The notes: generated from the sequence alone by a model not told the origin. Positions 1 to 36,444 are shown, numbered from the stretch's first letter. The stretch: DNA of 36,444 nucleotides from Chrysochromulina tobinii (GCA_001275005.1 JWZX01003333.1:1-36444); one strand, 5' to 3'. Numbers and translations are program-made.

Positions 1-62
1 AATTGACGAAACCCAGATCGGGTAGCAATTGACGAAACCTGCCCGCGGTGATTGACGAAACC
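1..62. repeat. Three short direct repeats (A)ATTGACGAAACC in the 3' non-coding region of the element
   Basis: Copies at 1-13, 27-39 and 51-62 with unrelated 11-13 nt spacers, plus a degenerate ATGATGAGAACC near 75-86. Confidence 0.8.
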
Positions 63-220
63 TTGGTCGTGGCCATGATGAGAACCCCATGCGTAGCGGG
101 GGGCTCGTAGAGCCCGCCCTCATCAAGGGCCATCTCCCGTCCCGCGAAGCGCGTCCCCACTCCTCAGCTCTCGAGCTGACCGTCCCTGTGCGTGAGTCGG
201 TTCCTTCCGGCAGCGGGTCG

Positions 221-1351
221 CTACCGGAATGATGCCGGCTGCACCCAACCCTTGCACAGGGTTTCCAAGTCCGCCCCGGCGGCGTCGCCCACTGCGGCGG
301 AGCCACTGAGGTGGGCCTCGGCTAGGGCTCGCTGGTAGATGAATGCTATGTCCGAGTGCCAGCGCCCCCTCTGGGTGATGATCCTCTCGGCGTCAGCCTT
401 GAAGACGTCGCGCCAGTCCGTGGCGCCCCCGATCCTGAAGCTGCTGGCCCCGAATTCGTACGGTTCGAGGCCCAGCGCCCTCGCCATGGCCTGCGCCAGC
501 TGGCGCGTGTCGATCGTGTTCCACCCCGCGCCGCTCCGGCTGAGGAAGAAGGGTTTGTCGGTGAGGGCTCCCTCCACGCGTCCCAGGGTGGGCGGCTCGG
601 TGCCGCTGCTTGCCCGCCATGCCAGAACGACCGCGTCGTATGTGCACAGCGGGTCCGACCCGATTGCTCCCCCCGCCTGCCGGCGTCGCACCGCCATGGG
701 GCAGACGCGCCGACGAGCCACTACGTCCTTGATCGGGACGACGTCCCACGTGAGCCAGGGGAGGTGGTTGCTATCCGCGCATGGCGCCTTGAACTCGATG
801 ACGCCGAAGGAGGCGTCTCGGGTCGCGTCCCATTGCTTGCCCTCGACCACACCGAGCTCGCCTCCGCGAAGGAGGAGGTTGTGGGCGACTAGCGCCGCTG
901 CCCATTCGATCATGCCACGGGCTGACGACCGATCGTATCCTATCGCCGCCAGGCTGCGCAGCATTGCGGCCCGAATGCCGCGCTTGAGCCGGCGCGTCCC
1001 TGGTGGGGCCTGCAGCTGTCGCGCGCGCTTGGAGGCTGCGGGCGCCAGCATGTTGACCTGCTGCATCGTGACCACGTAGTGGGCTTCGCAGCTCCGTAGT
1101 ATCTTGATGGCGGACACGTACCCGTCCACCGTGTCGCTGTTGAGTGGGGTGCCGAGACGGTGCCGCTGCCGCGACCCCTTGCGCCTGATGTATTCGGCGA
1201 AGAGGTCGAGCGTGTCCTGGTTGTAGCGCGCCGCGAGCATGTCCGCAGCGTGCTCCAACGGCATGAAGGGCGTCCTCCCGGTGGCCCGGAGAAAGTCTCG
1301 GAACCACTCGAGAGCGGTGCCCAGCCTGTTGCAATCCCAAGTCTCTCGCAC
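221..1351 (-). CDS. Tyrosine recombinase of the retroelement (true N-terminus probably continues in the 1352-1783 frame)
   Basis: Catalytic motifs LLRGGEL (Arg), IKD (Lys), SSFRIGGAT (the HSFRIGGAT box with His replaced) and GRWHSDIAFIY (Trp and catalytic Tyr). Confidence 0.92.
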   Translation of the reverse strand: MRETWDCNRLGTALEWFRDFLRATGRTPFMPLEHAADMLAARYNQDTLDLFAEYIRRKGSRQRHRLGTPLNSDTVDGYVSAIKILRSCEAHYVVTMQQVNMLAPAASKRARQLQAPPGTRRLKRGIRAAMLRSLAAIGYDRSSARGMIEWAAALVAHNLLLRGGELGVVEGKQWDATRDASFGVIEFKAPCADSNHLPWLTWDVVPIKDVVARRRVCPMAVRRRQAGGAIGSDPLCTYDAVVLAWRASSGTEPPTLGRVEGALTDKPFFLSRSGAGWNTIDTRQLAQAMARALGLEPYEFGASSFRIGGATDWRDVFKADAERIITQRGRWHSDIAFIYQRALAEAHLSGSAAVGDAAGADLETLCKGWVQPASFR

Positions 1352-1783
1352 CCGTTTTGGTAAGGCTCTTGCGGAGGTCCGCTAGTAGCTCTCCTCCTCC
1401 CGGCTCGGCTGCCCCGCTGATAAAACCGTCGGCAATCGCTGCTCCGAGTTCGCCCAGCATGCCGCACTCGCTCGCGAGCTGCTCAACCCGTTGCATTTGC
1501 AGTGCGAATGCGACGCTCCAGCCCGTTTGCACCGTAATCACCGGCCGCGTCGTTGCGGCTGGTTGTCGTGGCGCCGTCCGCGGTGTCCCTGATCCCAATC
1601 CCAAAATATGCGCTTTGAGCTGTGCTTCGCCGCTCCCTCGATGGCCGCGCGCGTCCTCGCGGTCGCGGTCGGCCTTCGAAGGTGGCTGCCCGTTGCGCAG
1701 CGCCCTGTGTCCCCGCTGAAGCTCCTCGCGCAGCTGGTTCACCAGGGACGAGCCCGTCGAGACCAGTCGTCTGTTACGTGAGC
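1352..1783 (-). CDS. Probable N-terminal extension of the YR ORF, opened by a splice acceptor at 1784 and joined to the YR frame by a +1 discontinuity near 1355
   Basis: The frame of ORF 771..1742 reads as helical protein (WSVAFALQMQRVEQLASECGMLGELGAAIADGF...LLADLRKSLTK). Removing one A from AAAA near 1355-1358 gives TKRVRETWDCNRLGTALEWF in the YR frame. Confidence 0.55.
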
Positions 1784-1868
1784 CTGCGTGGGCGCGTGAT
1801 TCGGTCAGTCTCCGTCAGTCCCCGTAGGGCAGCGCGCGCTGCTGGCGTGCTGCTGCTGCGTGCTGTTG

Positions 1869-4800
1869 CTATCCCCTTCCCTCCTCGGGCGGATCGCCGC
1901 GAGTGAGTGCTCCCGTTCCAAGCGCTACCGCCCGACGCAGCGCCTCCCACATCTCCGGTGTGATGTGGGCGCGTCTGACGCTCAGGCTCGCCGCCTCCGC
2001 GTCTGCAACCACCGCTGCCGGAATGCGCCAGCCGGCGCCGTCAGCCAGTGCGGTGGGGTGGCTCAGTCTGTCCGCGTCCACGTTCAGCTCGCGCGGCACC
2101 GCCACTCCCAGCCACAGCGTCGTCAGTTGACCCGCCTCGCGCAAGATGCTGCGCATCTGCGCCGTGGGGCTCGTCGCTGCGTTGAGGGCGGCCGCTGCCG
2201 GCGCGCAGTCACCGATGGCCGTGATCGCCGTCGCCCTGCGTCCTCTCTCGCTCGCTACTGCGTCGGCTACGGCGATGATGCCGAATAGCTCTGCTGCCGG
2301 CATCGAGAGTGACCCCCCTCCTGTTGGCACTGTCCCCGTCTCGGCCGCTCTGTCGAGCGCGGCCTGGATGTCCGCCGGCCACTTCTCAGAGACCAGCCAG
2401 ACTTCCCCGGGGCTGTTTGCGTCGAAGAGATATCCCCCGACCCCGTCGATGCCACTGGCGTCCGTGGTCACCGTATCCATTCCGAGCTCATCAAGTGCAG
2501 GGAATGACAGCTCGGGTGCGAGCGCCACCCCGACGTTGAGCTCGAGTAGCTCGGCTGCCACAGCCAGTAGCCCCAGCCAGTCGGTCTGCGCACTGCTACC
2601 TGTGCGTAGACGCATGCGGCGGAGGCGACGTCGCCGCCCGCCCGCTTGCCACGACGCCTTGGTGATGGCGTACCCTCCGTGTAGCACGGACTTGAGCTCT
2701 GGGAGAATCTGGGAGATGTTGACCAGCCGCCCTACCAGCGTCTCGGCGCGATCTCGGTCCACCTCGAGCGCCTCACGAGCTGCCTCTGCCTGCTTGGCCA
2801 GATCTGCCAGCATGGATGCCCGCTTGAGCGGCGGGCAGTCGATCCGCCTGGCCGCCCGGTCGATGCGCAGACCGAGCCCGATGACGGGGTCGCCCGCTAC
2901 CACCTTGTGGGGCGCCGCGTCGAGGCCTACGTCCCTGAGCCCCGCGACGGTGAGCTGCGCGTGTACGTACACGCGTGTGCTCGGGCTCGCCGCGGTTCCT
3001 CCCTCGGACCGGACCTGCTCCGGGCCGATGCTGATCCCTCGTACCTCGTCCGGCTCTGTCACCGGGTCGTCGAGTGCTGTGCCCATGAAATCATCAATGT
3101 ACACTTGCAGGTGACTGGGCATCGCCTGCACGTGTGCATTGGGTAGCTCCCCGCGAGCCTGGGCGGCGCGACGCTCGCTCATCCAGCGGCGAGCCGCCGG
3201 TGGCGGTGGCTGTGCCTCGTCGAACGCCGCCTGTTTCGTCCTAATGTGGGCCACGACCATGGTCGAGATGCGCTCGAACCTGTTGGGGGCGAAGGAGCCT
3301 CCGAACGCCGTCCGTCGGTCGACACAGATGCCTGCGCTGCCCTCTGCGTCCCACCACAAGAAGCACTGTTGCCACAGGTCCGCCTCTTGCGTGGGGCAGT
3401 ATCTATAGGCGGATTGGGCGTCTACCACGTACGAGCCCACTCGCGTTGCGTCGTCGCCAGCCGTGTCGCATATAGCTATCCCCCTCCCAAATTGCTGCAC
3501 CGTCGGCAGCTCCACCCAGCACTCGTGGTCGGGAACGCCGGCGTTCACCGACCGATCCCCGCCGTTGCTGCTGTCCTGGGTGACGCGCGGCTTCGGGTAG
3601 AGCTCGAGTGTAGGTTCTCCGCCACTCTCGCTCGGCACCAGCCTCGACCGTTCCTGCATGACGACGTTCCTCGGTAGGAGGCGGCACGGGACAAAAGGCA
3701 GGTGGCGGATCGGCTGATCTACCCACTGCTCCGCGATATCCGTCGCGACCGCCCGCTCGGCTGCGTCCACGTTCTCGATGAGCCCCAGGTGGTGGAATGC
3801 CAACACCGTGTCGAGCGGACAGTCTGAGCGTGACTCTATCCCGCCCTCGCCGACCTGGCTCACGATGTCACGATCGTGCCAGTCTAGCGCGGCTGCCACC
3901 GCCCGAAATGCGGCGCGGTCGATTTGCTTCCCCCCCTTGAACGTCGTGTGCCTCGTCGAGGGCGTCACCAGCTTGCAGTCAAGGGGGTCGGAGCAGTTCC
4001 AGACCACTCCCTGTGCCCACGTCCGCATCTGCTCTTGCCCGATGGTTCGAGTGGGGACCGCCGGTGGTGTGCGGCCCTCTTTTAGAGCTTTGGCCGCCCT
4101 GTCTGCGAGCTGTAGCCACGGCGTCACGATCCCGTCGTACACACCATCGAGGTACAGCTCCCCGATTGCGATGCTGCCCGCCCGTATGCGCTCTGCGCGT
4201 TCCACCGCGTGCTCTTCAGCTCCTGGCTGCGGCGGGCGCATGTGCGGCCTTGGCTTCCCCTTCGGCTTGCTTGGCGCTTGCGCTGGCCAGTGCATGCCCA
4301 CGGGGAACGCCTCGTGCCGGAGGCTCTCCAGCGATGCCGGCCTGCGGTTGCGCATAGACGCAAAGCGCGGTGGGCGGTGCCTGGCTTCCTCGCACGCTCG
4401 TGCGACCCCTGGACCCAGCCGCGGTCCGTCTGCCACGCGGCCGCCCCCGAGTGCCGCCGCTGCTCCCCTGCTGAGCTGGTGCTGCCCCTCCTCTTCCCTG
4501 CGCTCGCGTGCTCTCGCCGTCAGCGCGGATGCCAAGAAGGCGTTCATCGCGAGCGGGTAGGCGGCTGATGCCGCTGAGAGCGAGGATCCGTCGGCTGCCC
4601 GGCCGTGAGCCCGTCCGTCGTGCGCTGTCGCGCCGTGGTCGCACGGACGTTGGCGCAGCGGTGCCAGCAGCCCCTCGAGGTCCGATGAGTACGCGACCGT
4701 CGTCCATTTCTGCGTGGTGGCCCCAAATGCACACTGCGCAAACGTGGCTTCGCGCGCCCCTGCTGCTCCAGCGATCGCGGTCGCCACCGCCGGCTGTAGC

Positions 4801-6350
4801 CACAGCGGTGCGTGATCCGCGTGTTTCTCCCAAAAGGCCGGCGATCGTCGGTCGCCCCGATCCGCAGGATTCTCGATCACCCACGAGGCGCCCGCCGCAT
4901 GCGCTGCCGCCACCAGATCCGCCGTGAACTGTGCAAGTTCATTGTGCTTCCCCAAGTACCTCGCCCACTCGCTCGGCGTGTTCTGCAGACCAAGGGGCTG
5001 CCGCCGCGAGCGCAGCTGCGGCCGGTGAGCTATCGAGTAGCTCTGGCAAGGCGTGGCGATGAACACAGACGTGAAATCGCCGCGCCGCACCGCGTCAAGC
5101 AGGTGGCGGCGTGGCTGTGGCCTGAGCACGTTGTGTTGTTCACCGCCCTGCTTCGTGTCGATCGCCACCACGTGGAGCCCTCGAGCTCTCAGGTGTGCAG
5201 CGAGGTCCCGTTCGCTCCCCGGTCCGGCGAACACGATGAGCACCTTTGCCCATCCCGTGTCAGTCGTGTCGACTTGATCCGTGCTCGCCTCGCTCGTCGC
5301 GCTGTCATCGCTTGCCTCGCTCTGGTCGCTATCCCGTTGGCTGTCCTCTGCGTCTCCAACCCGGTCCATCATCCCCGCCGCCGCCGCCATCATCCCCGCC
5401 GCCGCCGCCCCGGCTCCAGCGGTCACGGACTCGCCCCCAGCTAAGGAGAAGAATCTTGAACCGGTGCTGAGAGCGGGCGGCTGCGACGGTGATGAGGGCG
5501 GCAAGGCAACAGCGAGCTGACTGGCCACGTCGTCCGCTTGCGCGCACCTGGTGGAGATCCAGCTGGCAATCGCGTCACCGTGGCAGCGGCTGGGGCTGCA
5601 CCCGCAGCGTAGCCACAGCGTCTCCCCCTTGCGCGCCCGCTCGGCCAGCCAGCTGAGCGCCAGCAGTCGGCTCTGTGGCGGCGTCCGAGTGCTCTTGGCG
5701 TGTGGCGGGGGCAGTCCTCTGGTGCGTGCGATCTGCTCTGGCGTCGACGCGCCTCGTAGCAGTTCCCCATATCCGTCGACCACCGCGTCCCGTTGGGCTT
5801 CACCGTGCATGAGCAGCGGGTTGCCGAACACTCCCATTTGATCTCCAGATCGCCGAATGTCGATCTCCCCAGTCACAAAAGCGTCGCCTGGTCCCAGTAC
5901 GACCACGCGACCGGCGGATGTGAGTGCCGTCTCGCTTGTATTCGCCGCGGCCGGCGGCGCGGCTATCGTTTCGTGCCTCGCCTCGGCGCGTATGCTTGTG
6001 CCCGCGCCGACGTGTGGCGGTTTGACCACTGAGATGGTGGCCTCGACCAACACGGCTGCAAAGGCGACGCGCGGAGGTTGCCTCCTGCGACGATCCAACC
6101 CCCCAAGTGCTTGCCCAGCTGGCTCGACCCTGCGCTTGTCCCCGGCTTCCGCTGTTGATGTGTTAGCTCGTTGCCCAGCGGCCTCTTCTGCTGGCTCAGC
6201 CCTGTTACCGCTCGACCCCGTTGAGGTCGACGGCTCGCCTTCGCCCGCAGCGTGTCGCCGCTCCCTGTCCAGGTACGCGTCGAGTCGTGCCTCGAAGCCA
6301 CCCTCCTGACCCAGCCCCGGCAGCGGATCGCTGCCTGGGCTGGCAATTTC
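1869..6350 (-). CDS. Pol polyprotein: DUF4326-like, C5 DNA methyltransferase, reverse transcriptase, RNase H
   Basis: The frame stays open from 6350, 84 codons upstream of the TTG at 6098. DUF4326-like DIRRS..FGNP...LRCGCSPSRCHGDAI (~5550-5880). MTase VLIVFAGPG, TPCQSYS, IENP, QCAFG, AAYP (~4530-5250). RT VVDAQSAYR, FGGSFAPNRF, VYIDD (~3090-3430). RNase H TTDASG, AAELFG, IGDC, NVDADRLSH (~2060-2470). Confidence 0.92.
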   Translation of the reverse strand, partial: EIASPGSDPLPGLGQEGGFEARLDAYLDRERRHAAGEGEPSTSTGSSGNRAEPAEEAAGQRANTSTAEAGDKRRVEPAGQALGGLDRRRRQPPRVAFAAVLVEATISVVKPPHVGAGTSIRAEARHETIAAPPAAANTSETALTSAGRVVVLGPGDAFVTGEIDIRRSGDQMGVFGNPLLMHGEAQRDAVVDGYGELLRGASTPEQIARTRGLPPPHAKSTRTPPQSRLLALSWLAERARKGETLWLRCGCSPSRCHGDAIASWISTRCAQADDVASQLAVALPPSSPSQPPALSTGSRFFSLAGGESVTAGAGAAAAGMMAAAAGMMDRVGDAEDSQRDSDQSEASDDSATSEASTDQVDTTDTGWAKVLIVFAGPGSERDLAAHLRARGLHVVAIDTKQGGEQHNVLRPQPRRHLLDAVRRGDFTSVFIATPCQSYSIAHRPQLRSRRQPLGLQNTPSEWARYLGKHNELAQFTADLVAAAHAAGASWVIENPADRGDRRSPAFWEKHADHAPLWLQPAVATAIAGAAGAREATFAQCAFGATTQKWTTVAYSSDLEGLLAPLRQRPCDHGATAHDGRAHGRAADGSSLSAASAAYPLAMNAFLASALTARARERREEEGQHQLSRGAAAALGGGRVADGPRLGPGVARACEEARHRPPRFASMRNRRPASLESLRHEAFPVGMHWPAQAPSKPKGKPRPHMRPPQPGAEEHAVERAERIRAGSIAIGELYLDGVYDGIVTPWLQLADRAAKALKEGRTPPAVPTRTIGQEQMRTWAQGVVWNCSDPLDCKLVTPSTRHTTFKGGKQIDRAAFRAVAAALDWHDRDIVSQVGEGGIESRSDCPLDTVLAFHHLGLIENVDAAERAVATDIAEQWVDQPIRHLPFVPCRLLPRNVVMQERSRLVPSESGGEPTLELYPKPRVTQDSSNGGDRSVNAGVPDHECWVELPTVQQFGRGIAICDTAGDDATRVGSYVVDAQSAYRYCPTQEADLWQQCFLWWDAEGSAGICVDRRTAFGGSFAPNRFERISTMVVAHIRTKQAAFDEAQPPPPAARRWMSERRAAQARGELPNAHVQAMPSHLQVYIDDFMGTALDDPVTEPDEVRGISIGPEQVRSEGGTAASPSTRVYVHAQLTVAGLRDVGLDAAPHKVVAGDPVIGLGLRIDRAARRIDCPPLKRASMLADLAKQAEAAREALEVDRDRAETLVGRLVNISQILPELKSVLHGGYAITKASWQAGGRRRRLRRMRLRTGSSAQTDWLGLLAVAAELLELNVGVALAPELSFPALDELGMDTVTTDASGIDGVGGYLFDANSPGEVWLVSEKWPADIQAALDRAAETGTVPTGGGSLSMPAAELFGIIAVADAVASERGRRATAITAIGDCAPAAAALNAATSPTAQMRSILREAGQLTTLWLGVAVPRELNVDADRLSHPTALADGAGWRIPAAVVADAEAASLSVRRAHITPEMWEALRRAVALGTGALTRGDPPEEGRG

Positions 6351-6353
6351 TCA
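6311..6353 (-). promoter_or_regulatory. Putative UGA readthrough signal: stop codon, 7 nt spacer, 14 bp stem-loop
   Basis: Minus strand reads TGA GAAATTG CCAGCCC-A-GGCAGCG-ATC-CGCTGCC-G-GGGCTGG, and gag and pol are in the same frame. Confidence 0.65.
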
Positions 6354-9300
6354 GATCTTGGCCTGTAGCGAGGCGACGCACGCTGCCCTTACCTTGTCCA
6401 GTGTGCCAGGCGGTACCGCCGGTGCTCCCCCGGCCTTTTTGGCCATGTCCGCCTGTGTCGTGCACGAGCGGCATGGTGGCGAGCCGATCGCTCCGCCCTT
6501 GCAGCCGCACGCGAATGCCGCGAATGCGCACGGCAGTTGGGCGTTCGAGAGGGTCGGGTGTGCTAGCCGGAGGAGATAGTCGAAGTGCTCGACCGCTCCC
6601 AGCCTCTTCGTCTTCTTGTCGATCAGCATCGTGATGCTGTTCGCCGCGAACGAAGGGACCCACGCGCGTCCGGCCGCTGCCGCCGCTGCTGCCGCCGCCG
6701 CTGATGTCGCGGCAGCTGCCGCCGCCGCCGCCGCCGTCCCGGCCGTCGTCGTCGACGTTGCCGCCGGTGTCCCCCCTGCCTTGGCCGCCTCGAGCTTGGC
6801 TGCGTATTCAAGCCGTCGCCGTTCCCCACGTGGTACCTTGGCGTCGCCCTCGGCGGTGATCACCGGCGCCTTGTGCTTGTTTCCCGCGGCCAGCGCCTCT
6901 GCTGCTGCTTGCTTGCCCGCGCGGGCCCCCGCCTCCTCCGAGTGCTCTTCACGACCGAGTGCCTCGAGCTTCTCGCGCATGTCGACCTCGATGAGCGATG
7001 CCCATCCAGTTTCGAGCACATTCGCGCGCGAGCGCTGGTGGCGTGCGCCGCGGTCCGCTCGCTGGAACAAGTCCTCAAAGAGCTCAGTCGCCTTGACGAC
7101 GGTGAGCTCTCCGAGTGCGTCTCGGGCGAGGTCGTGCATCCCGTAGTCCTCACGGGTGCCCCCGTCCTCACCGAGGGCCTTGACGCGGATCGCGAGGAGG
7201 ATCGTCCCGAGATGCATCATCGCAGTCTCGATGTCCGACGTCGCCTTCGGGCCGGTGGTTGTCCCCCAGTGGCCCGCTCCCGACTTCGAGCTCTTTGTGG
7301 CCCTGTTGTTGCTGGGTTTGGTGGACCCGAGCAGCTTGACAATCAGGGCGAAGTCGACAGACTTGCTCCCCCCCTCGACCTTCACCGCACCCGCGAGGGA
7401 TGATGTGAGGATGGCGAGAGAGAGTGCCTCGATCTCCCCCGTGCATTCCCCCGCCCGCTCCTCGGTGACGAGGCGTTCGATGAACGCCTCGATGAACGCG
7501 AGGAGCCCCTGTTGTGCCAGTAGAACCGGCGCTGCGATGGAACCTGCGAGGTCACAAGTGTGTTACCGCGTCAGCTTCCCCGACGACTGTGCGCGGCGGA
7601 TCGCTCGCGACAGTGTCGCCCCCGTTCGTCCCCGTCGCCCCGTGCGTCCCCTGTTGCTCCCGTTTCCCGATGGGCACGAGCCGGGTTTGGGTCGCTCTGG
7701 TCCAATCACTCCACGCGCCGTGCTGGGCGGTACGCTGCGACTGTCCCTTCGCTCCCCGCCCTCGTCTGCGCCCTGTTGGTTTGCTCCCCCGCGCTGTGTC
7801 TTGTGTGTGTGGGTGTGCGTGTTCGAGTGTGCGGCGCGCACCGTTGCCCGCGAGCGCGTCCTTGTACGAGCCGTCGGATGACATGAGCGCTCTCGCGGCG
7901 TCGCCGTACGAGGTGCCGACGATCCTTCGCGCCTCGTCGATCGGGTCGGCGCTGTGCTCCGCTGCTGCTTCTGCTTCCACGACCCCGGGCTCAGTCAGCT
8001 GCGTAATGATGGATGCCGCGCAAGAGAGCGCCGCCGTCGCCATCGAAGTACGCCGCACGAGCTTGACGCGAGCCGGATCGGCTTCGCTGCCCGCGTCCTT
8101 GAACGCGATCTTGTCCGGCTTGCCCGGCGAGATCTTTGTGTTCTGGTACGCCGTGATGATCTGGCGGAGCCTGTTGCCTGCTTCACGCCAGTCAGGTGGT
8201 GGTAGCTCAAAGTTGACGCCCGCTCCTTTGAGGATGATCGCGTAGTCTTCCCCGGCCGAGGTCGCCATCTCCTCGGCGGTGTCCCCTGCGAAGAGTGCGC
8301 CGGCTGGAGGCCTGCCCACCGCTGCCGCCATCGTGTCTGCCAGCAGCTGCAGCGTGGCGCCCCGTGCTTGTGCAATTTTCTCCCATGCTGCCCCCGGTGT
8401 CACCGTGCCGGTGTTCGCCGGCCTTAAAAAGGGCAGCGTCTCCGTCCACGCGGTCGTCGGTGGCCGTGGGGGCGGTGCTGTGCCCCTTGGTGCCGTTGGC
8501 GCCCCTCCCCCCAGTGCTGCCGCGGCGGCCGCCGCCGCCGCCGCTGTGGTTGCCGCCGCGATTGTTGCCGTGGTGGCCGCGGCCGCCGCGAGTGCCGCCG
8601 TGGCTGCCGCCGCTGTCGCGGACTTGGCCTCGGCCGATCCGATCGACTTCGCGAGCGCCTCGCCTACGCCAGACGGACCCAGCGTAACCCCCAGCAAGGA
8701 TGAAAGGCTCGCCGACATCTTGGCTGTGTCCCCGATGGTGGCTGAGTCAAGTGAGTCCACCAAGTCGCCGATGGCCGACTTGAGTGCCTCGGCCGCCCGG
8801 TAGAGCTGTGATTTTGGTTCGTCGTGTGTGCCCCCCGGGTCGCCCGCTCCGAGGTGTGCAAACACCACTGCGAGGGGCCGTTCGATAGCAGGATCCCCAG
8901 TGAGCCCAGCCACAAACCCCGCATAGTCGGTGACACCGGTATGCACCCCACGCGTTCCGATGTCGGAACCGATCGTCGTCAGAGCCGCGATGCGCATGAG
9001 CGCGTTCGGTCCGGTTGCCAGGTTGCCCAGTAGGATCTTTGCCGCGATTGCGACGGCTTCGGTCGGTACGCCGGCTGCCGCTTATGATCGGGCGGCGTGA
9101 TGTTCGTCCCAGCCCAGTGTTCCCAGATGTTTGGTCCCATGATTGCCTCGAGGTCGTTAAGCTTTCGCATGACCACGGTGCCTCCAATCTTCAATTGGAC
9201 TGCCTCGAGAGGGCCGGTGCTGAGCACGGGCTCGATGGTGACGCCCCAGCCCCATTCCTGTGGCCAGCGTCGCCGCCCGCGCTCCGCGTTTGAGCCCCGA

Positions 9301-9624
9301 GGTGATGCAGCCCACCATCGCTCTTATCGCTCCAGCTGTATTCATCGCTTCTTCTGTGAGCTCTTCCGTCGCCGAACTGTTGTCGGCCTTCGAGACGGTG
9401 ATCTTCAGGTTCTTCTGATCCCCGGTCTTGATGTTGGTGGGGATGTACCGCCAAGAATCGGTCCCGCCAAATCTCATCCAGACGATCGACCCCTTGAGGA
9501 GGTCTCTGGTTTCTCCCATTTTGGTGCTGTCAAATAATGCTGGCTTCGCGGGCGTGTCGCCCGCTGCCGGGTCCAGCACGAGGCCTGCCGCCTCGCGTGC
9601 CGTCCGACCCACTTCCTTGAGCAT
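6351..9624 (-). CDS. Gag-like ORF1 of the retroelement; exons ~9624-7842 and 7543-6351, with two compensating frame discontinuities near 9245 and 9083
   Basis: Position upstream of pol, Ala-rich linkers and a C-terminal Cys cluster (LPCAFAAFACGCKGGAIGSPPCRSC). ORFs 9157..9624, 8979..9227, 7552..8997 and 6351..7385 join into one protein. The Gag identity is positional only. Confidence 0.65.
7544..7841 (-). other. Spliceosomal intron (298 nt, phase 1) inside the gag-like ORF
   Basis: Donor AACG|GTGCGC at 7841, branch GCTGAC at 7575-7570, acceptor CTCGCAG|GT at 7544. Removal gives ...KDALAGN-G-SIAAPVLLAQQGLLAFIE..., in frame with ORF 6351..7385. Confidence 0.75.
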
Positions 9625-10032
9625 AGCCTTCCCGAAAAAAGAAGGAGAGGCTGCGCCCGCGCTGCCTGTCGCACGCTGTCAAGTGGCGACGAGCCCTTGA
9701 TCTTCGTGAGGGATGGGGATTTCGTTTCCACGTTCCAGACGTTCACAGCACCTGTGAGGGGGCCGGCTGTGATTGTGGTTTTTGCTTATCCCCTGGCTTA
9801 TACCCCGTATAGCTGTGACCTAGATCTGCTGGACCCAGTGTCGTGACCACGCCGTCGGCTCGACGCTCCCGGGGACACTTCACCCCCTCGGGCACAGCCC
9901 AAGGACCCACCCTGCGGCAAAAGATCGTCGAGGTGTCCGACTTTTTCATGTACATGTATAGTAACGTCCGAACATCGGGTCGCGTCGGACTCCGAGGATT
10001 TCCGGACGCCAGCTCTCCTGCGCGCCGACGAG

Positions 10033-10881
10033 ATGCCAGTCATCCTGCCCGTGCCCACCGCCGAGGGCGTCGACGAGCCGTCCATCGCCGATAGCAGTGC
10101 GCTCCACAAAGAGAGTCCGCGATATTGCGAACTCGTGCGGCAGGCGCTGGCGATGCGCGCGGGCGTTGGCTTCGGCGACGTTGAGCGGCTTGACGCCTTC
10201 CGGCTAACGGGGCCGGACAACCACGGGCGCCCCGTGTTCATGTTCCTTCCGGCTGCGATCCCCGAGACGGAAGAGACAGAGGCCATCGTCGAGAAGCTCA
10301 CGCTCTACGTGCTCTCGCTGGTACATGATCTGGTAGTCAACCAGCAGCAGGGCTACACGGCCATCTGGATGTGCAACAACCACTCAGAGTCGCGGCCGCT
10401 CTCCGCCCGCTGGTTCTACAAGATGCATCGATGCGTGCCGTACTGCTACCACGAGCGCCTCGCCGGCCTCTGCCTGGTGCACCCGTCGGTCACCGTGCGC
10501 TGCCTGATCTTTCTGCTCTCGTACCTGCCGCGCGTCTCGTTTTGGGAAAAGCTCAACTACTGCGACCGTCTCGAGTTCCTGGACGCGGACGTGCCGGTCG
10601 CGCTCATCAAGACCGTGCCACAGCTCTACAAGGACTACGACAAGCAGCTCGACCGCGAGATGTACGAGAGCTCGGACCGGCTCGGCGCGGGCGGCGCCCT
10701 CGGCGGAAGCAGTATGGCGGGCATGGCAGGCATGGGCGGACTGCCCGGCGGGCTGGGCATGGGTGTCGGCGGCATGGGCATGGGTGGCGTGCCTGGCGTC
10801 TACGGCGGCGCGAGCGCCGAGGGCGAGCAGTCGGTGCGGCCTAAGGTGGACCTGCCCAAGCGCAATTGGGAGACGGACTGA
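10033..10881 (+). CDS. CRAL-TRIO/BCH (Sec14-like) domain protein with a Gly/Met-rich tail
   Basis: GPDNHGRPVFMFL, YHERLAGLCLVHPS and SFWEKLNYCDRLEFL resemble the BCH/CRAL_TRIO_2 consensus; clean 282 aa ORF. Confidence 0.85.
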   Translation: MPVILPVPTAEGVDEPSIADSSALHKESPRYCELVRQALAMRAGVGFGDVERLDAFRLTGPDNHGRPVFMFLPAAIPETEETEAIVEKLTLYVLSLVHDLVVNQQQGYTAIWMCNNHSESRPLSARWFYKMHRCVPYCYHERLAGLCLVHPSVTVRCLIFLLSYLPRVSFWEKLNYCDRLEFLDADVPVALIKTVPQLYKDYDKQLDREMYESSDRLGAGGALGGSSMAGMAGMGGLPGGLGMGVGGMGMGGVPGVYGGASAEGEQSVRPKVDLPKRNWETD

Positions 10882-11213
10882 GAGAGATAACTTACAGTAG
10901 AGAATCAGGTCTTAGAAATCGCCAGAGGCCAGTCCGCTGCCTCTCGTGGCACTCGACGGTTTTCCTATACCTCGTTGTCAGCCCCGGTGTCAGCCGCGCC
11001 TCGTGCGCGTGCATGCAATTGCGTGCATGCTCGTGCGCGGGGGAGCGCGGCTCCCTGAAAGCGACACTGCTTAACTCAGGAAAGCCTCTTCAAGTTTCGA
11101 ACCAAAGAATTCACTCCTCACCTGTTTCCCCACAGGGGAGTCGGCCCGGCTCGCTCGGCCACCATTCACAATGAGAAAGGAGGGGCTGCAAAAGAATTTC
11201 GCCCGAAGCGCGA

Positions 11214-12425
11214 ATGTCAACTGTGGACCCGTCGAGGCTCAAGGTCTCGGAGCTCAAGGCCATCCTGCGCGAGCGAAATGTGGCATTTGAAGGTGCGGTC
11301 GAGCGGCAGGACCTGCTTGATCTTGTGATGCAGAGCGGTGGGCTTCCAGGGACAGCGAGCAAGGCAGGAGCTGGCCGGAAAGAGCGCAAAGCATCCGGCA
11401 TACCGAGTGCGGATCGCCAGCGTCAGGATGAGAAGGGCGAAGCGGCCTACTTGCGCCTCGTTGCGGCAGCAGACGTGCTGAAGATCAGCGTGGACGCGGC
11501 TGATGATGTCGTCAAAGCGGCTCACACAAGGCTTGCAAAGGAACACCACCCGGACCGTGTGGGAGCGGACGATCGGGAGAGGGCAACGGCGCTCTTCATC
11601 GAGGCGCAGGCGGCATTCGAGCTGATCGTGTCGGTGCCGCATAAAGCGCGCGCCCACGCTATGCGCACCGCCAAACGGAAGTTGGCTGCTCGTCAGCAGG
11701 CCACAGCTGCCGCGGGGCTGAGCAGCGGCACAGAGCTCAGCAGCCCAGATGACGTGCCGGAGACGTGGCCCGAGTTGGTCTCAGCGTCAGATGCAGAGCA
11801 GCAGGCGTCGACGGCGCATCGTCATCGGAGAGCTCCGCCGCCGCAACAGCAAGACCAGGCCCCAAGGCGTGCCCAAGACGGCGGGACGCCGAGACGAGGC
11901 CCCTCTCCCGTCGCGGGGACCCCAAGACGGAATCCGCAGCAGTTCCAGGACATCTTGGCGGAGGCGGCACGCGAAAGCACCAGGGCCGCCCGCCCTAAGT
12001 CTGCTCAGGCCATGGCTCAGGGACCAGTGCCGCAGGAGATGGAATCTCGCGCTGGACCGACCGATACGGGAGAGAACCGACGCGGCGATGGGTTTGACGA
12101 TGGGCTAGGCCCGTGCATCGAGGTCTTCACGTGCTTTGCATTCGGCTACATACTGTGCCAGGACGGTCTCAACCGGTGCACCAAGTGCGTCTGCACCTGC
12201 GGCGGCCTACTCGATATCTCCGAGGAGGAGCTGCGATCGTGGGGCTATCGCGTGGAGGAGCACCAGATCGCGCGCTACAGGCACGAGCCCCAGCTCCCAC
12301 GAGATGGAGCCGCGGCACATCGAGCGCAGGTGCGACGCGCGGCGCGGTCGCACACGCAGGAGTTCGAGCAGCAGCAGTACGCGGCGTCGGGGATTAAATC
12401 CCCGGCCGGGATGCACAGAGTTTAG
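11214..12425 (+). CDS. J-domain (DnaJ-type) protein with an N-terminal SAP-like helical motif
   Basis: VLKISVDAADDVVKAAHTRLAKEHHPDR...FIEAQAAFELI contains the HPD motif; the N-terminus has LKVSELKAILRERNVAFEGAVERQDLLDLV. Confidence 0.85.
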   Translation: MSTVDPSRLKVSELKAILRERNVAFEGAVERQDLLDLVMQSGGLPGTASKAGAGRKERKASGIPSADRQRQDEKGEAAYLRLVAAADVLKISVDAADDVVKAAHTRLAKEHHPDRVGADDRERATALFIEAQAAFELIVSVPHKARAHAMRTAKRKLAARQQATAAAGLSSGTELSSPDDVPETWPELVSASDAEQQASTAHRHRRAPPPQQQDQAPRRAQDGGTPRRGPSPVAGTPRRNPQQFQDILAEAARESTRAARPKSAQAMAQGPVPQEMESRAGPTDTGENRRGDGFDDGLGPCIEVFTCFAFGYILCQDGLNRCTKCVCTCGGLLDISEEELRSWGYRVEEHQIARYRHEPQLPRDGAAAHRAQVRRAARSHTQEFEQQQYAASGIKSPAGMHRV

Positions 12426-12591: not shown

Positions 12592-15500
12592 ATGGTCCTC
12601 CATTGCATGCATTCGAATTCTTTACGAACCTGCCCGTTGATTTCGAGGAAAGTTGCGTCATCGCTCTCGGCCCAGTGCACAGGCTGCTGCTGCTCGAGTT
12701 GCCTCCCTCCCGTGGGCAAAATGCCTCCAGTGGGCAAATTGCCTCCCGTGGTCGCACACACAGCCCCGTCCGTTGGAGGAGATTGCCCATACATCCTGGT
12801 GACTGGTGCTGGCGAGGCGGCCGTCAACGGATTGTACGCGCTCGCCGCTCTCGCCAACGAACGGCCCACTTGGAAGGCGCTCACAAACGACGACGCTATC
12901 ATCCAATTCAATACGGCCGCCGAGGCGGACGGCTGGTTTGGCGCGGGCACGGGTGCCATCTACGCCATCGTGGACAAAACGCACAAGTACATCGCCAAGG
13001 ATACGGCCAGCACGGGCCTGCGCTCGCCGCCAACCACTGGCTTCGTCGCACGCTCGAAAAAGGTCAAGGAGCCCGCCCCGACGCTCGCGTGTGCCGCGGT
13101 GGCTCCCTCGTGCGCGCGTGCCCGCGCCATCGCATCGGGGCTCCCGTTTGCGTCGGGCGCGCTCTTCACGCGCAGCAGCTCCCTCGTGCCTCGGACAACG
13201 TACACGCACGCGCTCGCCGCCGGACAGGCGACGCTGAGCTGGCAGGACGCAAGCGCGGCGACTCGCGGGGCCACCGGCGGCGGCACGAGCGGCGGCGCCG
13301 CATGGCTGCTGATCGCGCCGGACGCTGTGAGCGGTCAGCCCCTGGCGCTCTTGAGCGCTCCTGATGCACTCTCGCGGGCGCTAGGCCCGCCTGTGAACAA
13401 TTGGATCCCGCGACCGAGCAAGCACAAGCCGAACAAGGGTGAGGCTCCTCCATCTCTGCGCCTTGAGTGCGCGTGCGGCGCGGCGCATTTCGAGTCGGCC
13501 GAGGCGCTCGGGTACCTTCCACGCTCGTCGAGCTGCGCACGCGAGTGTACGCAGGCGCCTGCGAGTAGCGCTTGCCTTGGCTGCCTGTGCGTGGCTTGCG
13601 GTGTGTGTCCGCCGCCGCCGCCGCCGCCGCCTGCGCCGCCCTCGCCGCCGCCGCCGCCACGAGATCCTTCGCCGCCGCCGCCGCCGCCGCAGCCGACGAG
13701 CCAGACGCTGCTCGCGACGGGCTTCGAAGATGGAGGCGGAGGTGTCGAGGTCTCTGACTCGGGCGGCGGCGGTGGCGGCGTGCTCATGCACGAGATGCCC
13801 TCGCGTGCGGCGAAGCGAATGGGAAGCTACGGCTTACGGCTCGAGGTGCGCATGGCCTTTGAGGCCTCCCTAATTGCCACCCTAATTGCCTCCCTAACTG
13901 TGCCACCTCCTTTTTGCTCCCCAATTGCCTCCCTCCTCCCTAATTGCCTCCCTAATTGCCTCCCCCATTGCCTCCCTAATTGCATGCAGGTGCGCAAGGC
14001 CTTTGAGCCGGCGTACAAGGGCAAAGTTCAGCTGGGCTCCTTTTTGGTCGCGGGGGGCTTCACGCTCCTAACGGTCTCGCTTTGGGTTCGCGCCGAGGAC
14101 GGCGCGCAGCTGCCCTTGCCCAAACTAGACGTCCTCGACGCCGATGAGGGCTATGAGTGGCTCGGATCGGCCGAACCCTGCCTCGTGTCGGCGACCGAGT
14201 GGCGGCAGTGCTCGGCGACCGTGGCGCTCGATACGGCGCGTAGGGGTCACGCACTCGAGTGCAATCTGGTCGTGGGCGGTCACGTGGGCGTTCTGTACGT
14301 GGACGACATCCTCGTCGTCCAATCGATCGCATCGCCACCCAGCCCGCCGACCCCGCCGCCGCCCGCCCCGCCCCTCGATCCGATCCTGCGCATCGAGACA
14401 TTCGAGACCTCGAGCGTGCAGCCGTGGCCTGCGCCTGAGGTGGGCTCAGCCGAGGCGGCGCTCTACAGCCGCCTCGCGGCCCCCGTGCACGCGCGCACGA
14501 TCGTCGCTAGTGATGGTAAGGAGGGCAAGATGGTCGCGGAGATCCCGTCGGGCGGCGGGCGGCCGCCCTCCAAACGCGCCGCGCGGATTGACGTCCAGTC
14601 AGTCTACCGGCCCGCCTGGCGCGCGCGACTGGAGCTGGGCAGGTACGTGGTGCAGCTGAGCGAGCTCCGAGTGCGACTGTGGGGGCGTGCCACCAGGCAC
14701 GTCGAGAGGGGCGATGGCAGGCGGTTGGACGGCGACGATGGCAGGCGGTTGGATGGCGACGATGGCAGCGACGATGGCAGGCGGTTGGACGGCGACGATG
14801 GCAGCGACGATGGCAGTGGTGCCGGCGCCGGCGAGAATGTGCGCGTGACGATTGACGTGACCGACGAGTCCGTGGGCGGCGAGTGGGTGGGCTCTGCTCA
14901 GCCGTTGTACTTTGGGCCCGTGTGGAAGGAGCACACGGTGACGGTGGTGCTTGACACAGCGCGCTCGCTCCACGTGCTTTCGCTGGCTCTGATCGTCGGT
15001 GGGACGGCGGCGGAGTATTGGGTGGACGATGTGGCCATCGAGCAGGCCGTGCCGCCCCGTGGGCTGCGCGAGGGGATCCTGTCCATCGGCTTTGAGGAAG
15101 ATGAACCTCATGACGCCGCGGACGGCGGCCTCGCCATCGTACGCCACCCAGCTGCCCCCGCAGGCGCCCTCCCTTATAGCCGTTCGACTCTCGCGGCTCC
15201 GCTGAGCACCGCCGACCGGATGATCGTACCGCCCGCTGTCGGGCCTACAGGAAGCCGTTGCGCCAAGCTCGTGGTCGAGCAACCGGCCGAGCCGCCCTGG
15301 TACCCGAAGCTCGGATGGCGCCTGATTGCATGCTGATTGCATGCTGATTGCACGCTGATTGCATGCTGATTGCATGCTGATTGCATGCTGATTGCATGCT
15401 GATTGCCTCCCTCATCAGGTACCTGAAGCTCCGGCTCGGAACCTTCCGTGCCGCGAACCAGATGCTTCACGTGGCGCTCACTGCACGGCTGGAGGCCGAC

Positions 15501-18500
15501 GGCGGTGTCGGCGAGTCGCCGCAGCCAAGCCGTCACCACCATCACGGCCGGCGCAGCGCAGAAGTCGCCGCCTCCGCGTCGAATGACGTGCCCCCGTTTT
15601 TCACCGTCGACATCGTCGATGGCGCAGATTGGATCGGGAGTTGGGTGCACTTGAACCTGAGCTCGAGCGCCTGGCAGCGGTACGAGGTCTCGGTGCCACT
15701 GCCCTTTTCGCGCCGCGGCCACTTTCTCGACGTCGCTGTGGTCGTTGGCCATCGGGCGGGCACGTACCTGATCGATGACGTGAATGTCACCCAAACGCTC
15801 GCGCCGCCGCCGCCGCCCGCACCCCCGTCGGTCGCCTGGGGTGCCACTTACGACTTTGAGAGGTTGCCCAGGGTGGAGGGGGGCGCCATGGCCGTGCGTC
15901 TCATCACGTATACGCCCGAGGCGGCTGCGGGCGCGAGTGCGGACCTCTGTGCCTCGTCCGCCGGGCGCGCGGGTGGGCACGGCGCCATGATCACCGTCAG
16001 CCGGGCGCCAGCTCAGCCATGGCATACGCGGATCGGTCTCGGGCTCTTTGAAGCACAACGCGCGGCACTGGTCCTCAAATTCTCCGCCAAGCTCGCGTCG
16101 CCCGCCGCGGGCGCTCAGCTCACGCCGCCACCGCCGCCGCCGCCCTTCCCGCCGCAGCCGCCTCCCTCTGGTCTAGCCATGCCATGCACGAATGCACACG
16201 GCCCTACGGATTCCAAGGTCGAGAAATGCATGGGCTGGTGCACCGAAGGGGCCGCCTCCCAGCGTTCACAGCGCTGTGCCTATTGCAAGTGCCGCCAGTG
16301 CCCGGCATGCCTGGCGGCAGCGGCCACGGGTCCCTTTCTAACGGTGAGCGTCACCGACGCCGACAACGCCTCCGAGTGGCTGGGCTATTGGCAGAGACTC
16401 AACCTGAGCTCCGCCGAATGGCGACAGTTTAAGGTGACGGTGCCGCTCTCCGCCGCCAAGCGCGGACACACGCTCGAGACTTCGATCGTTCTCGGGCACG
16501 CGGCCGGCGTGTACCTGATCGATGATGTCTCCATCTACCAGACGGACCCGGTCGCGCTCGCTCTCCAAGTCGGATTCGAAGAGCCCGACGCCGCCGTCGT
16601 CGCTGTGGGCACAGGTGGCAGTGTCGCTGTGCCGGTGGCCGGGGGCGGCCTGATGACGGCCAATCTCGCCTCTGAGGCGGCGGCGCACGGCGGCGGCAAG
16701 GGCGCCGAGGTGGTGATCCGCGAGCTGTTCACACCAGCCTGGCAGGGGCGTCTGGAATTAGGCACGATCGTAGCTACCCTCAATGCGCTCACCATTCGCC
16801 TCTGGGGACGCGCGAGTCGCCCCGCGCCCATCCACGCCAATCTCATCGACAGCGCGGCGGCCTACGAGTGGTTGGCGTTTTGGGAGCCTCTCAATCTGAC
16901 GAACCACTGGGCAGAGCACTCAACTGTCGCGCCGCTCGACCCTACGCGCCGAGGACATCGACTCCAAATGTCCCTCGTGATGGGTGCCATCGCCGCCACG
17001 TACTCACTCGACGACATTTCACTCACGCAGAGCTGTGAAAACTGGCCGACGCCCTGGCTGCCGCCGGCGCCACTCGGCTCACTCTATACGGGCTTCGAGG
17101 ACTGCACTGGTGCTATCCCCCGGATGGACAGCGCCACGTCGAGCGGCGGCGCCCGGTACAGCGCGACGTCGGGCGGCGGCGCCCGAGACAGCGCGACGTC
17201 GGGCGTCGGTAGCAGCGGTGGCAGTCCGATCGCAGCAGAGCTGTACGCGCCCATGGCGGCGCGTACCGGCCAGCTGGGGATGAGGCTCAAGGTGCGGCGC
17301 CACCTGCATATTGATGAGGAGCGACCCAAGCTCATCCTCGGCAGCTTGATCCTGGCGGACGCGTCGCGCGCTTCGGATGCAATCCTTCTGTCGCTCTGGG
17401 CCAAGATGCAGGTGTGCAAGCAGACACCGTGGAACGCCTCTGAGCGCCACTCAGTGTCATTGAGTGCCCTTGGTAGTGTGCCCTTGGTAGTGGGTGCCAC
17501 AGTGGTCCAGTGCCACGGAGAGCCTAGAGTCCCTTGATTGCCGCTTGAGCTCCCTTGATTGCCCATTGATTGCCCATTGATTGCCCATTGATTGCCCATT
17601 GATTGCCCTTGATTGCCCATTGATTGCACTTGATTGCCCCTTGATTGCCCCTTGATTGCCCTTGATTGCCACGGAGAGCCTCCGAGTCCCACACCCCTTG
17701 ATTGCCGCTGATGAGCGCCAAGTGACCCCCGATCGTTCTTCCCACAGCCCGGCGAGACGGCGGAGCACGGCGAGACACCTCCGTCGATCACCTTCGAGCT
17801 ACTCGACGTCAACCAATCGTACACGTGGATTGGGCACTGGCGTGCGTGCAACATGACGCACGGGCGTGCGTGGACCAAATGTGCTGCCGAAGTCCCCATC
17901 ACGCCAGCTCTCGCGCTGCACGTGATTCAAGTGAGCATCCTCTTTGGAGCGGTACGCGCCTCGTATCTCGTCGATGATCTCGCCGTCGAGCTCTGATGAG
18001 CTCTGATGACCTCTGATTGCCTCCCTCATCAGGTACGCGCCTCGTATCTCGTCGATGATCTCGCCGTCGAGCAGCGCTCTCGTTCGAGCAGCGCCGCCGC
18101 GAGCCGCTCGTATGTGCTCCTGTCCGAAGGCTTCGAAACCGCCGCAAGGCCGCCCAAGCCGCTCGCCTACGGTGCGCATCTCGAGGCGCGCATGTGCATG
18201 CATGCATGCATGCATGCATGTGCTCACCACGGCGCCCGGTGTTCCCCACAGGTGCGCATCTCGAGGCGCGCATGTCCGATGGGGGGTCGGCGATAGCCGC
18301 GGGCATGCATGCCGACTTGCATGCCGCCGACGCGGCGCATGCAAGGCATGGGAGCAAGGCGGGCGCGCAGGTGCGCGTGCCGGCGCGCCTCTCCCCCCAC
18401 CAGCAGACCCTGAGCATGCATGTGCTCATCACGGCGCCCGGTGTTCCCCACAGGTGCGCGTGCCGATGCTTCCGCCGGCGGCGGGCGGCGGCGGCGCACG

Positions 18501-20557: not shown

Positions 20558-20907
20558 TTGCCTCCTAATTGCCTCCGAATCGCCTCCTTATTGCCTCTTA
20601 ATTGCTCGAGCCGGAACCCGCGGCGTCGGGGCAGTTGTGAGAGAGCGGCGCCGCGAACTCGCCGCCTTTCTGACGCATGTGGAACGATGCCTGGATGATT
20701 GCGTTATGCCTGGATGATATCTATGTTTGTTCCTCTAAGACGTCCTAATAGCGCGAGCTCTAGCGGTAGCACTACGAGTACGTTTACGATAAGCCGTCGA
20801 GTCGATGCATGGCGTGCATGGACCATGTGGACCGCATGGTGCCCGTCGGTGCGGGTGTGCATTGCGTTGTGCACATTGACACAAAAAATACACTCTTCGG
20901 GGCGACC

Positions 20908-34963: not shown

Positions 34964-35968
34964 TCATGACCCGGCCCGGCTCGCGAGCGTGAGCGCGGTC
35001 TGACCGTGCAGTGGCCAGCGCAGCTGCGTCACCTGGCCGCGCGCGCCCGGCACTGCCGCGGCCACACCCGATGCGACGCCGGAAGCGACGCCGGAGAGCA
35101 TGCGCTGCGAGAGCCACATAGGGCCACTCTTGTACTTGCGATGCGCGGCGCCGCCCCACATCGCGTGCTCGTGCATGCGCTCGGTGCGGACTTGGATCTC
35201 AAACAGCTGCCCGTTCGGGAGCCGCAGGGTGTCATGGAGCCCCTGGTAGCCGTTGGGTTTGGGTCTCCGCACGTAGTCTTTGAAGCGCCCCTCGCCCACC
35301 GAAGGGTAAAGATGGCGGATGGCCGCGAGGGCTTCGTAGACGTCGGCGGCGTCCTCACCGCGCACGACCACGCGCACGGCCAGCACGTCGTGAACCGTCT
35401 TCTGACGCACCGTCGCCTTGTGGAACGTGCTCCACAAACCCTTTGAGCGCACGGCCACAGCGGCGTGCCGGAGCACGGGATGCTCGTTGCCCATGGCGCG
35501 GATCTGCTGCTTGGTGGACTCGAGGCACGCCTTCATGGCCTCCTGCGCGCCGAAGGCCTGCATCCGCCACTCACGCAGCAGCCAGTACGCCTCGGGCGAG
35601 ACGAGCGCCAGCATGATGTCGTCCGCAGGGATGTTTTGGAGCTGGAGCATCGAGTGCTTGAGCCTCAAGGCAACGGCGGACGACTTCAAACGCCTGGACG
35701 TCTCGTGGAGCAGCAGCGAAGGGAAGGTTGCCTGCACAGCGAGAGCACGTGGGGGCGTGCGCGTCTCAGCCAAAGTGGGGCGCTTGGATTGTTGCTGAAA
35801 CGTGGAGGGGGGCGGCGGCGCAAAGGGGTGGGGCCTTGGGCGCACCGAGAAAGAGGGCAACGTTTCCAATTGCAGTGCGGCGGTTGCCGTCGGTGCCAGT
35901 GCAACGCGCGAAAGTGCATTTGGCAACACGAACACGACCGCGGTTGCGATGAAGAGTGGGACGATCAT
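34964..35968 (-). CDS. RelA/SpoT homologue, (p)ppGpp synthetase domain, probably plastid-targeted
   Basis: RSKGLWSTFHK, VHDVLAVRVVV, KDYVRRPKPNGYQGLH and FEIQVRTERMHEHAMWGGAAHRKYK; hydrophobic N-terminus from Met at 35968. Confidence 0.92.
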   Translation of the reverse strand: MIVPLFIATAVVFVLPNALSRVALAPTATAALQLETLPSFSVRPRPHPFAPPPPSTFQQQSKRPTLAETRTPPRALAVQATFPSLLLHETSRRLKSSAVALRLKHSMLQLQNIPADDIMLALVSPEAYWLLREWRMQAFGAQEAMKACLESTKQQIRAMGNEHPVLRHAAVAVRSKGLWSTFHKATVRQKTVHDVLAVRVVVRGEDAADVYEALAAIRHLYPSVGEGRFKDYVRRPKPNGYQGLHDTLRLPNGQLFEIQVRTERMHEHAMWGGAAHRKYKSGPMWLSQRMLSGVASGVASGVAAAVPGARGQVTQLRWPLHGQTALTLASRAGS

Positions 35969-36042
35969 CTGGACGGCCTCGAGTTTGGGGTCGGACGGAT
36001 GCAAGAATCCGGAAGGATACATGATACATGATGCATGATTCA

Positions 36043-36444
36043 TCAAGTCGATACGGAGGGACCCATGTTCTTTCCGACAAGAGCGTGGGTCATTCCGACA
36101 TGTTCATGAACTTGTCGGACATGTTCGATGATCAATACAAAGTCAGAATCACGTATTTGTGGTTGAATGGCCGTCATCTCATCCGCGTCCCAACATACTG
36201 CATCCTGCTCTAATGGCACTTCATCTGCATCCCAAGCCGCAACCCTTTGAAACCCTATGCTGCGAATCTCGGCCGGCATTGGCGCCACATGTCGAGGAGA
36301 GCGCGCAGGTGCGGAGGAACGCGCATGTTGCGGCGATCTCAACAAGGGTTGGGGGTGGCAGGTGCGCCAGAATGAGCTCGAGCAGGCCGAGCTCCTTGTC
36401 GCGCAGGTCGGTCAACATGGCGACACTGACAGCCACAACCTCGT
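36043..36444 (-). CDS. Partial F-box-like protein (5' end off the window; frame change between two ORFs)
   Basis: DLRDKELGLLELILAHLPPPTLVEIAATCAFLR is F-box-like; continuation into ORF 36043..36345 is uncertain. Confidence 0.4.

Follow-up and report, generated by a model that had tools for sequence, protein, structure and literature searches.

The window analysed here is a 36,444-nt stretch of Chrysochromulina tobinii DNA (JWZX01003333.1). Near its start lies a retroelement whose minus strand carries a gag-like ORF, a long pol ORF and a tyrosine recombinase (YR) ORF, with direct-repeat sequence at either end (Table 1). Its insertion adjoins a host CRAL-TRIO gene (9847–10878, plus strand), and further host genes have DnaJ (11175–12422, plus strand) and RelA/SpoT (34967–36103, minus strand) domains. 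Several host introns (13850–13990, 15300–15420, 17520–17700, 19880–20600, 24400–25900 and 32300–33600) consist largely of tandem repeats, 10–12 nt long and of the GCCTCTGATT type, and have a common 3' end, GCCTCCCTCATCAG. Repeats like these are known from introns of freshwater haptophytes.

Table 1 Features of the element in the window, listed in the direction of its transcription.
Feature	Position	Strand	Remarks
5' repeat A, 274 bp	9634..9907	-	L001 self-comparison
gag-like ORF exon 1, ATG at 9624	7842..9624	-	two frame breaks in window
GT-AG gag intron, 298 nt, phase 1	7544..7841	-	skipped in RNA contigs
gag-like ORF exon 2, Cys-rich C-terminus	6354..7543	-	invariant P241, C242, C261 (alignment A6)
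splice-donor-like GTAAGG, phase 0, 39 nt upstream of stop	6387..6392	-	absent in relatives
in-frame TGA, inferred readthrough codon	6351..6353	-	sole stop between gag and pol
stop-to-stem spacer, 7 nt	6344..6350	-	
predicted hairpin, predicted readthrough stimulator	6311..6343	-	RNA folding
pol ORF, 1493 codons	1869..6350	-	linker, DUF4326, C5-methyltransferase, putative RT and RNase H
RVxF-type motif RVAF, pol residues 94-97	6060..6071	-	upstream of first ATG
DUF4326 domain, pol residues 163-262	5565..5864	-	Pfam E 1.7e-5
C5 cytosine methyltransferase domain, pol residues 364-617	4500..5261	-	predicted structure, pLDDT 94.5
VYIDD, putative RT catalytic motif	3090..3104	-	
tyrosine recombinase ORF	221..1814	-	530 codons open in L001; window 1-nt break at 1355
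branch-point + acceptor-like site, head of YR frame, phase 1	1784..1808	-	
beginning of 3' repeat B (full length in L001, 311 bp)	1..88	-	L001 self-comparison

Because the repeats run A-coding-B-A-B, pol contains a methyltransferase fold and the last ORF is Cre-like, the element is a YR retrotransposon of the split-direct-repeat kind whose pol includes a C5-methyltransferase domain. The repeat order was read from L001, a separate assembly in which the same element extends past the window end; its self-comparison gave A-coding-B-A-(167 bp)-B with copies 100% identical, and RNA contigs likewise hold a second copy of 9793–9900 beyond position 1. Pfam and PDB sequence searches returned no match for RT or RNase H in pol, and they also missed the methyltransferase and the YR. 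Predicted structures placed the latter two. The top Foldseek matches of the methyltransferase model were MET1, DNMT1, ZMET2 and M.HhaI (E 1.8e-5 and up), at 10–15% identity, which does not place the clade, and the YR model matched Cre recombinase structures (E 2.9e-4), with R135, K181, R279, W304 and Y312 invariant. We take VYIDD in pol to be the reverse-transcriptase catalytic motif and, together with TDASG, to mark putative RT and RNase H domains. The DUF4326 domain is an insertion in the window's pol, and Pfam marks it in only one other of 49 Pol relatives.

Three frame breaks interrupt the window's copy. The break at 9244 in gag exon 1 is not in a DNA run (X9), the break at 1355 in the YR is missing from RNA contigs, and L001 and L002 are 2 nt shorter there with the YR open, so both are likely assembly errors of the window. 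The other gag break (9081–9085) is common to X9 and L001 and missing in the strain that supplied the RNA; gag exon 1 may thus be broken near 9081 in the window strain's copy. When the differences of the RNA strain were applied, gag was open for 991 codons from its ATG, with pol and YR open too, and 19 of the 25 coding differences checked between that strain and the window were silent.

At the junction, the gag end reads ...AAG ATC TGA and the pol frame opens with the very next codon, running to a closing TAG at 1871–1869. A single in-frame TGA therefore divides gag from an open pol, as an earlier note on this DNA had claimed from the sequence alone. The note's estimate that the first pol ATG lies about 170 codons on, in the DUF4326 domain, was also borne out: it is codon 172 (5837), within the Pfam match. 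Folding likewise recovered the proposed stem of 7+7 bp with one mismatch. It is a plain hairpin of 7 bp, one A.G mismatch, 7 bp and a 3-nt loop, at -29.7 kcal/mol, and no pseudoknot was found at the window junction. Its z-score is -3.6 in a 54-nt and -5.9 in a 46-nt segment, none of 200 shuffles was as stable, and it is the top-stability window among 9,460 40-nt windows of the element (9700–240). Two features had been missed: the 298-nt gag intron, and a strong donor-like site, AAG/GTAAGG, upstream of the stop, which holds the only GTAAG on the element's sense strand (9.5 kb).

Polyadenylated RNA contigs from one study (X13 and X14), from freshwater samples and a strain about 99.5% alike, cover this junction. 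Since the gag intron (7841–7544), retained in the DNA of X9, is skipped in both, they represent processed mRNA. They run gap-free and unspliced over stop and stem (6669–5200 and 6638–5620), with both unchanged and the closest differences at 6372 and 6282. Because this strain keeps the TGA together with open gag, pol and YR, the TGA is part of an intact, expressed element. The earlier note had named splicing across the stop as an outcome that would speak against it; no such joint occurs in the contigs X13, X14 and X16, and no loose end there among those listed, in a type of assembly that loses rare isoforms. Contig X16, from another study (depth 3.6), spans 6138–6669 with one of its five differences listed and none at the stop, and was left uncounted; X15 and X17 do not reach the junction.

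The end of Gag is conserved at the same place. A profile search with the Gag C-terminus gave 234 clusters, and among the best 150 of these all 113 relatives that reach the profile end stop within 0–32 residues of it. A sense codon at this point in other copies, which would have spoken against the earlier note, was accordingly not encountered. None of these 150 carries a Pol match. Among 49 Pol relatives (950–1,527 aa, with lengths up to 2,613 aa searched) none has fused length. Proteins longer than Gag were absent with a single-Gag query, and the three found with the profile query each end at the Gag end; viral contigs gave 0/33 and 0/44 pattern matches. One relative's cluster contains a protein labelled Phaeocystis antarctica.

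We then compared loci at the DNA level. A metagenome scan gave 48 loci, of which 28 distinct ones were counted; left out were 13 without a recognisable gag end, six near-duplicates (L002, L005, L009, L018, L024 and L041) and L038, which is chimeric upstream. In three of the counted loci (L043, L044 and L046) the upstream ORF (511–932 codons) counts as gag because of where it lies, with no match to the profile. A single stop followed by a frame open into the methyltransferase was found in 13 of the 28 loci (3 TGA, 10 TAG) against 0.37 expected by chance from off-frame stop density, several of the 28 being close kin. L012 carries a second in-frame TAG. An in-frame ATG ahead of the methyltransferase is present in nine of these 13 direct loci and missing from the other four, as well as from both counted loci of a +1 subclade described below; AUG initiation is therefore not a general route to Pol. 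Nine of the 28 linkers carry an RVxF-type motif, presumably like a PP1-docking motif, in the reading frame; among the 56 off-frame readings, two do (Fisher p 0.0006). Because the window's copy of this motif precedes the first ATG in frame, it suggests that the stretch right past the stop is translated. RVx[FW] motifs recur ahead of both the methyltransferase and the recombinase, and one is also found in the YR N-terminus of L021.

What is conserved is the position of the stop, and not its identity. The earlier note had asked whether the TGA itself is kept; the stop is, while 16 of 26 loci use UAG and 10 use UGA, with both types mixed within clades in a quick tree of the relatives that contains several short rows and was used only for this and for the nesting of the +1 group. 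Two other features were tried as evidence for readthrough and dropped after controls with the pol and YR stops. G follows the stop in 19 of 26 loci against 19 of 37 pol/YR stops, an excess that is not significant (p 0.12), and the absence of UAA is uninformative, as pol and YR stops rarely use TAA either.

Structure past the stop is similarly variable. The 60 nt past the stop fall in the locus's own top 5% for structure in 8 of 28 loci (p 5e-5 if loci were independent, which kin are not), and the post-stop mean z of -0.99, against -0.2 to -0.8 nearby (p 0.043), is a weak family-wide enrichment. Covarying stems were seen in one clade with 10 of 26 pairs (0/500 shuffles), beginning 11–14 nt past the stop, and in a second with 7 of 28 pairs (3/500 shuffles); both structures were derived from the same small alignments, which favours them, and both belong to clades other than the window's lineage. 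The earlier note had named an unconserved stem among the outcomes that would speak against it. The window's own 7+7 stem is not kept beyond its lineage, and six of 28 loci (L007, L010, L013, L027, L033 and L035) have no notable stem; the stem is therefore no family-wide requirement. Judged from the sequences compared, the window's hairpin is lineage-specific, and a 3' stem is common in the family, selected in some lineages and not required in all. Three of the stemless loci (L007, L010 and L013) are very G-rich after their TAG, where a G-quadruplex or purine-tract stimulator is possible.

In a further 13 of the 28 loci pol is not open in the DNA. The best-scoring predicted GT-AG intron restores the gag frame in 11 of these 13, with one tie and one against, on scores from an ad hoc matrix. 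A common predicted donor, CAG/GTGA in phase 0, is shared by L017, L021, L023, L025 and L028, and L040 has a clear polypyrimidine acceptor. In these six loci and in L026 the predicted in-phase introns lie 10–700 nt past the gag stop. Messenger RNAs with introns downstream of a leaky stop would resemble targets of nonsense-mediated decay.

The +1 subclade is arranged differently. Here gag ends GTT TAG C and pol lies in the +1 frame, in the two counted loci L016 (9796–9806) and L019 (9811–9821) and also in L018, L024 and L038, with no ATG ahead of the methyltransferase. In the quick tree the subclade nests among direct loci. A GUU_stop_C motif has been proposed for +1 frameshifting in closteroviruses, in the text available of PMC3542737, and by analogy we regard the subclade as a candidate for closterovirus-like frameshifting. 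With GUU-UAG-C and pol in +1, its recoding would sit at the same stop.

The YR could be reached by a different route. The acceptor-like site near the start of the YR frame has the same phase, 1, as the donor of the gag intron (7841), so splicing of Gag(N) to YR may be how the recombinase is produced. No gag-to-YR splice joint was present in the RNA contigs, and no phase-1 donor in pol and no conserved splice donor in late gag were found among the relatives compared. A phase-1 acceptor-like YAG/GC at the head of the YR frame recurs just after the pol stop in L011, L012, L014, L023, L025 and L028, and L021, L025 and L028 carry a phase-1 AAG/GT at the column of the gag intron donor.

A YR ORF and split direct repeats point to order DIRS. 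It is not DIRS1-like: L001 has direct repeats only, with no inverted terminal repeats or internal complementary region. The earlier note had contrasted the junction with the overlapping ORFs of DIRS elements; the comparison was loose, since the repeats here are split direct ones, and where DIRS1-like elements are described as having long overlaps, as half of them do, it is pol and YR that overlap (available text of PMC3266345). Its layout resembles that of Ngaro and PAT-like elements, which share split direct repeats and the order gag, RT/RH, YR (PMC8547959, PMC6681497, PMC3266345, as far as their text was available). Ngaro is described without a methyltransferase in the available part of PMC3266345, whereas the window's element has one, and the likeness is one of layout; the same sources, in the parts available, describe no mode of pol expression. 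Similar in layout, too, is SymbioDIRS-Dnmt3 of Symbiodinium, a YR element with A-coding-B-A-B repeats, a C5 methyltransferase and RT in its Pol ORF and a separate YR ORF (PMC5890265, in part). The window's element has both the methyltransferase within pol and the split repeats; its host, in contrast, is likely a haptophyte, and the accessible text on SymbioDIRS-Dnmt3 describes no gag-pol stop or readthrough. None of the full-text literature found (including PMC8547959, PMC6681497, PMC3266345, PMC8226300 and PMC5890265, in the parts available) describes readthrough between gag and pol for a YR retrotransposon; a description may exist in subscription reviews (Poulter and Butler 2015, for example), in Repbase or in supplements.

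The junction itself has the layout of programmed readthrough, a single conserved in-frame stop and, behind it, an ORF that lacks a usable start. Gammaretroviruses and alphaviruses are established cases of readthrough at a stop followed by a spacer and a 3' structure (PMC3542737, PMC13517186, in the parts available), and these sources give gammaretroviruses, epsilonretroviruses and alphaviruses the same in-frame stop, a 7–12 nt spacer, a 3' structure and a polymerase fusion as the minor product. The element differs from those viruses in its simple hairpin, its UGA-GAA context, the use of both UGA and UAG in the family and introns on either side of the stop. Type II readthrough combines UGA-CGG or UGA-CUA with a stem-loop about 8 nt past the stop; the element lacks the context and has a predicted stem-loop after 7 nt. 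Of the type III features (UAG, a 3' G or purine-rich octamer, 3' structure), the window shows UGA-G and 5/8 purines downstream. Tca2 of Candida albicans, also a retrotransposon, has gag-UGA-pol and a predicted 3' structure, although it is a copia LTR element and its junction alone gave no readthrough in S. cerevisiae (PMC2194720, in part); it warns that a gag-UGA-pol layout need not act canonically in reporters. The closterovirus motif matches the five +1 relatives and not the window's element, and here it would operate in a retrotransposon (PMC3542737, in part).

We consider it probable (roughly 0.7) that Pol is made as a Gag-Pol fusion by readthrough of the gag UGA. The spliced mRNA would carry gag and pol in one frame, divided by the UGA. 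A majority of ribosomes would stop there and release the free 991-residue Gag, and a minority would accept a near-cognate tRNA at the UGA, likely assisted by the hairpin 7 nt downstream. The product, of about 2,485 residues, would carry the methyltransferase, RT and RNase H and be made at a low Pol:Gag ratio. The layout, the splicing of the gag intron, the unspliced run over the stop and the conservation of stop position and frame were observed, and the hairpin and the relatives' introns are predictions; that readthrough takes place, how often it does, which residue goes in at the UGA and what the stem contributes are inferred. Features of the window that speak against this reading are the UGA-GAA context, which fits neither the type I nor the type II motif, type III usually having UAG, the ATGs at codons 172–328 ahead of the methyltransferase, and the strong donor-like site 39 nt before the stop.

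Those ATGs would serve a Pol translated separately, from a subgenomic RNA or an internal promoter; its translation would begin at AUG 172 or 320, or else at a non-AUG codon. Either AUG would retain the methyltransferase, RT and RNase H, an AUG of this kind is present in nine of the 13 direct loci, and Tca2 has a minor promoter at its junction (PMC2194720, in part). Separate initiation is still unlikely: the AUG is missing from four direct loci and both +1 loci, AUG 172 would truncate DUF4326, and neither the frame kept from the stop nor the RVxF motif upstream of the first AUG would be explained. Improbable, too, is the other main rival, a minor splice from 6392 to 6306 (AAG/GTAAGG to CAG/GAG), which would excise 87 nt, taking out both stop and hairpin and leaving the frame intact. 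The donor is the element's only GTAAG and stands in phase 0 close to the stop, the first good in-phase AG lies directly behind the hairpin, whose folding would place a branch point close to the acceptor, and the family uses introns, in gag and, as predicted, in relatives. Yet none of the three RNA contigs that span the junction shows the joint or, among those listed, a loose end; relatives have GTC, GTG or ATC at the donor codon and no common donor; and the acceptor is purine-rich, scoring 5.5 against 7.5 for the acceptor in use.

It is very improbable that decay of this copy gave rise to the TGA as a nonsense mutation, or that gag and pol abut in frame by chance. The break near 9081, shared with X9, would suit decay, but the RNA strain, whose gag, pol and YR are unbroken, retains the TGA, all 113 Gag relatives that reach the profile end among the best 150 of 234 stop at the same place, and the frame is conserved far above chance. 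The earlier note offered readthrough or selenocysteine insertion. Its readthrough half stands as the best explanation, given the 113 of 113 Gag ends and the lack of a splice in the contigs, and the selenocysteine half falls. Algae of this kind use selenoproteins, and in having a stem 3' of its UGA the junction is like the SELENON element. With UAG at the same place in 16 of 26 relatives, UGA and UAG mixed within clades, and no SECIS family matched by Rfam up to E 5 in the element or in its 3' repeats, selenocysteine is excluded at the family level; the stop also sits in a variable linker with no catalytic site, and in the window this decoding is almost certainly not used.

Beyond the window's readthrough, a wider reading seems to us evenly balanced between true and false: that a large, undescribed haptophyte family of methyltransferase YR retrotransposons recodes at one fixed gag stop, switching among readthrough of UGA, readthrough of UAG and +1 frameshifting of the closterovirus type, with lineage-specific stems, in-phase introns past the leaky stop, and the YR made through a separate phase-1 splice. 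If true, that family would be a natural series for the interconversion of readthrough and frameshift signals.

How YR retrotransposons express pol is unsettled in the literature found, in the parts available. Gag-pol readthrough itself is well known elsewhere, and what is added here is the family view of one fixed stop with UGA, UAG and +1 versions and predicted in-phase introns past it. The family is a panel of variants that differ in their stop (UGA or UAG) and in whether a stem follows, and it includes a sister clade bearing a candidate +1 frameshift at the same codon. Annotation would also need correction if the reading holds, as gene callers split or truncate every Pol of the family, their predicted Pol starts landing in the linker or within the methyltransferase. 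With a conserved leaky stop, the control of the Gag:Pol ratio known from retroviruses would reach order DIRS as well, and there would be readthrough signals for an algal lineage in which we found none described.
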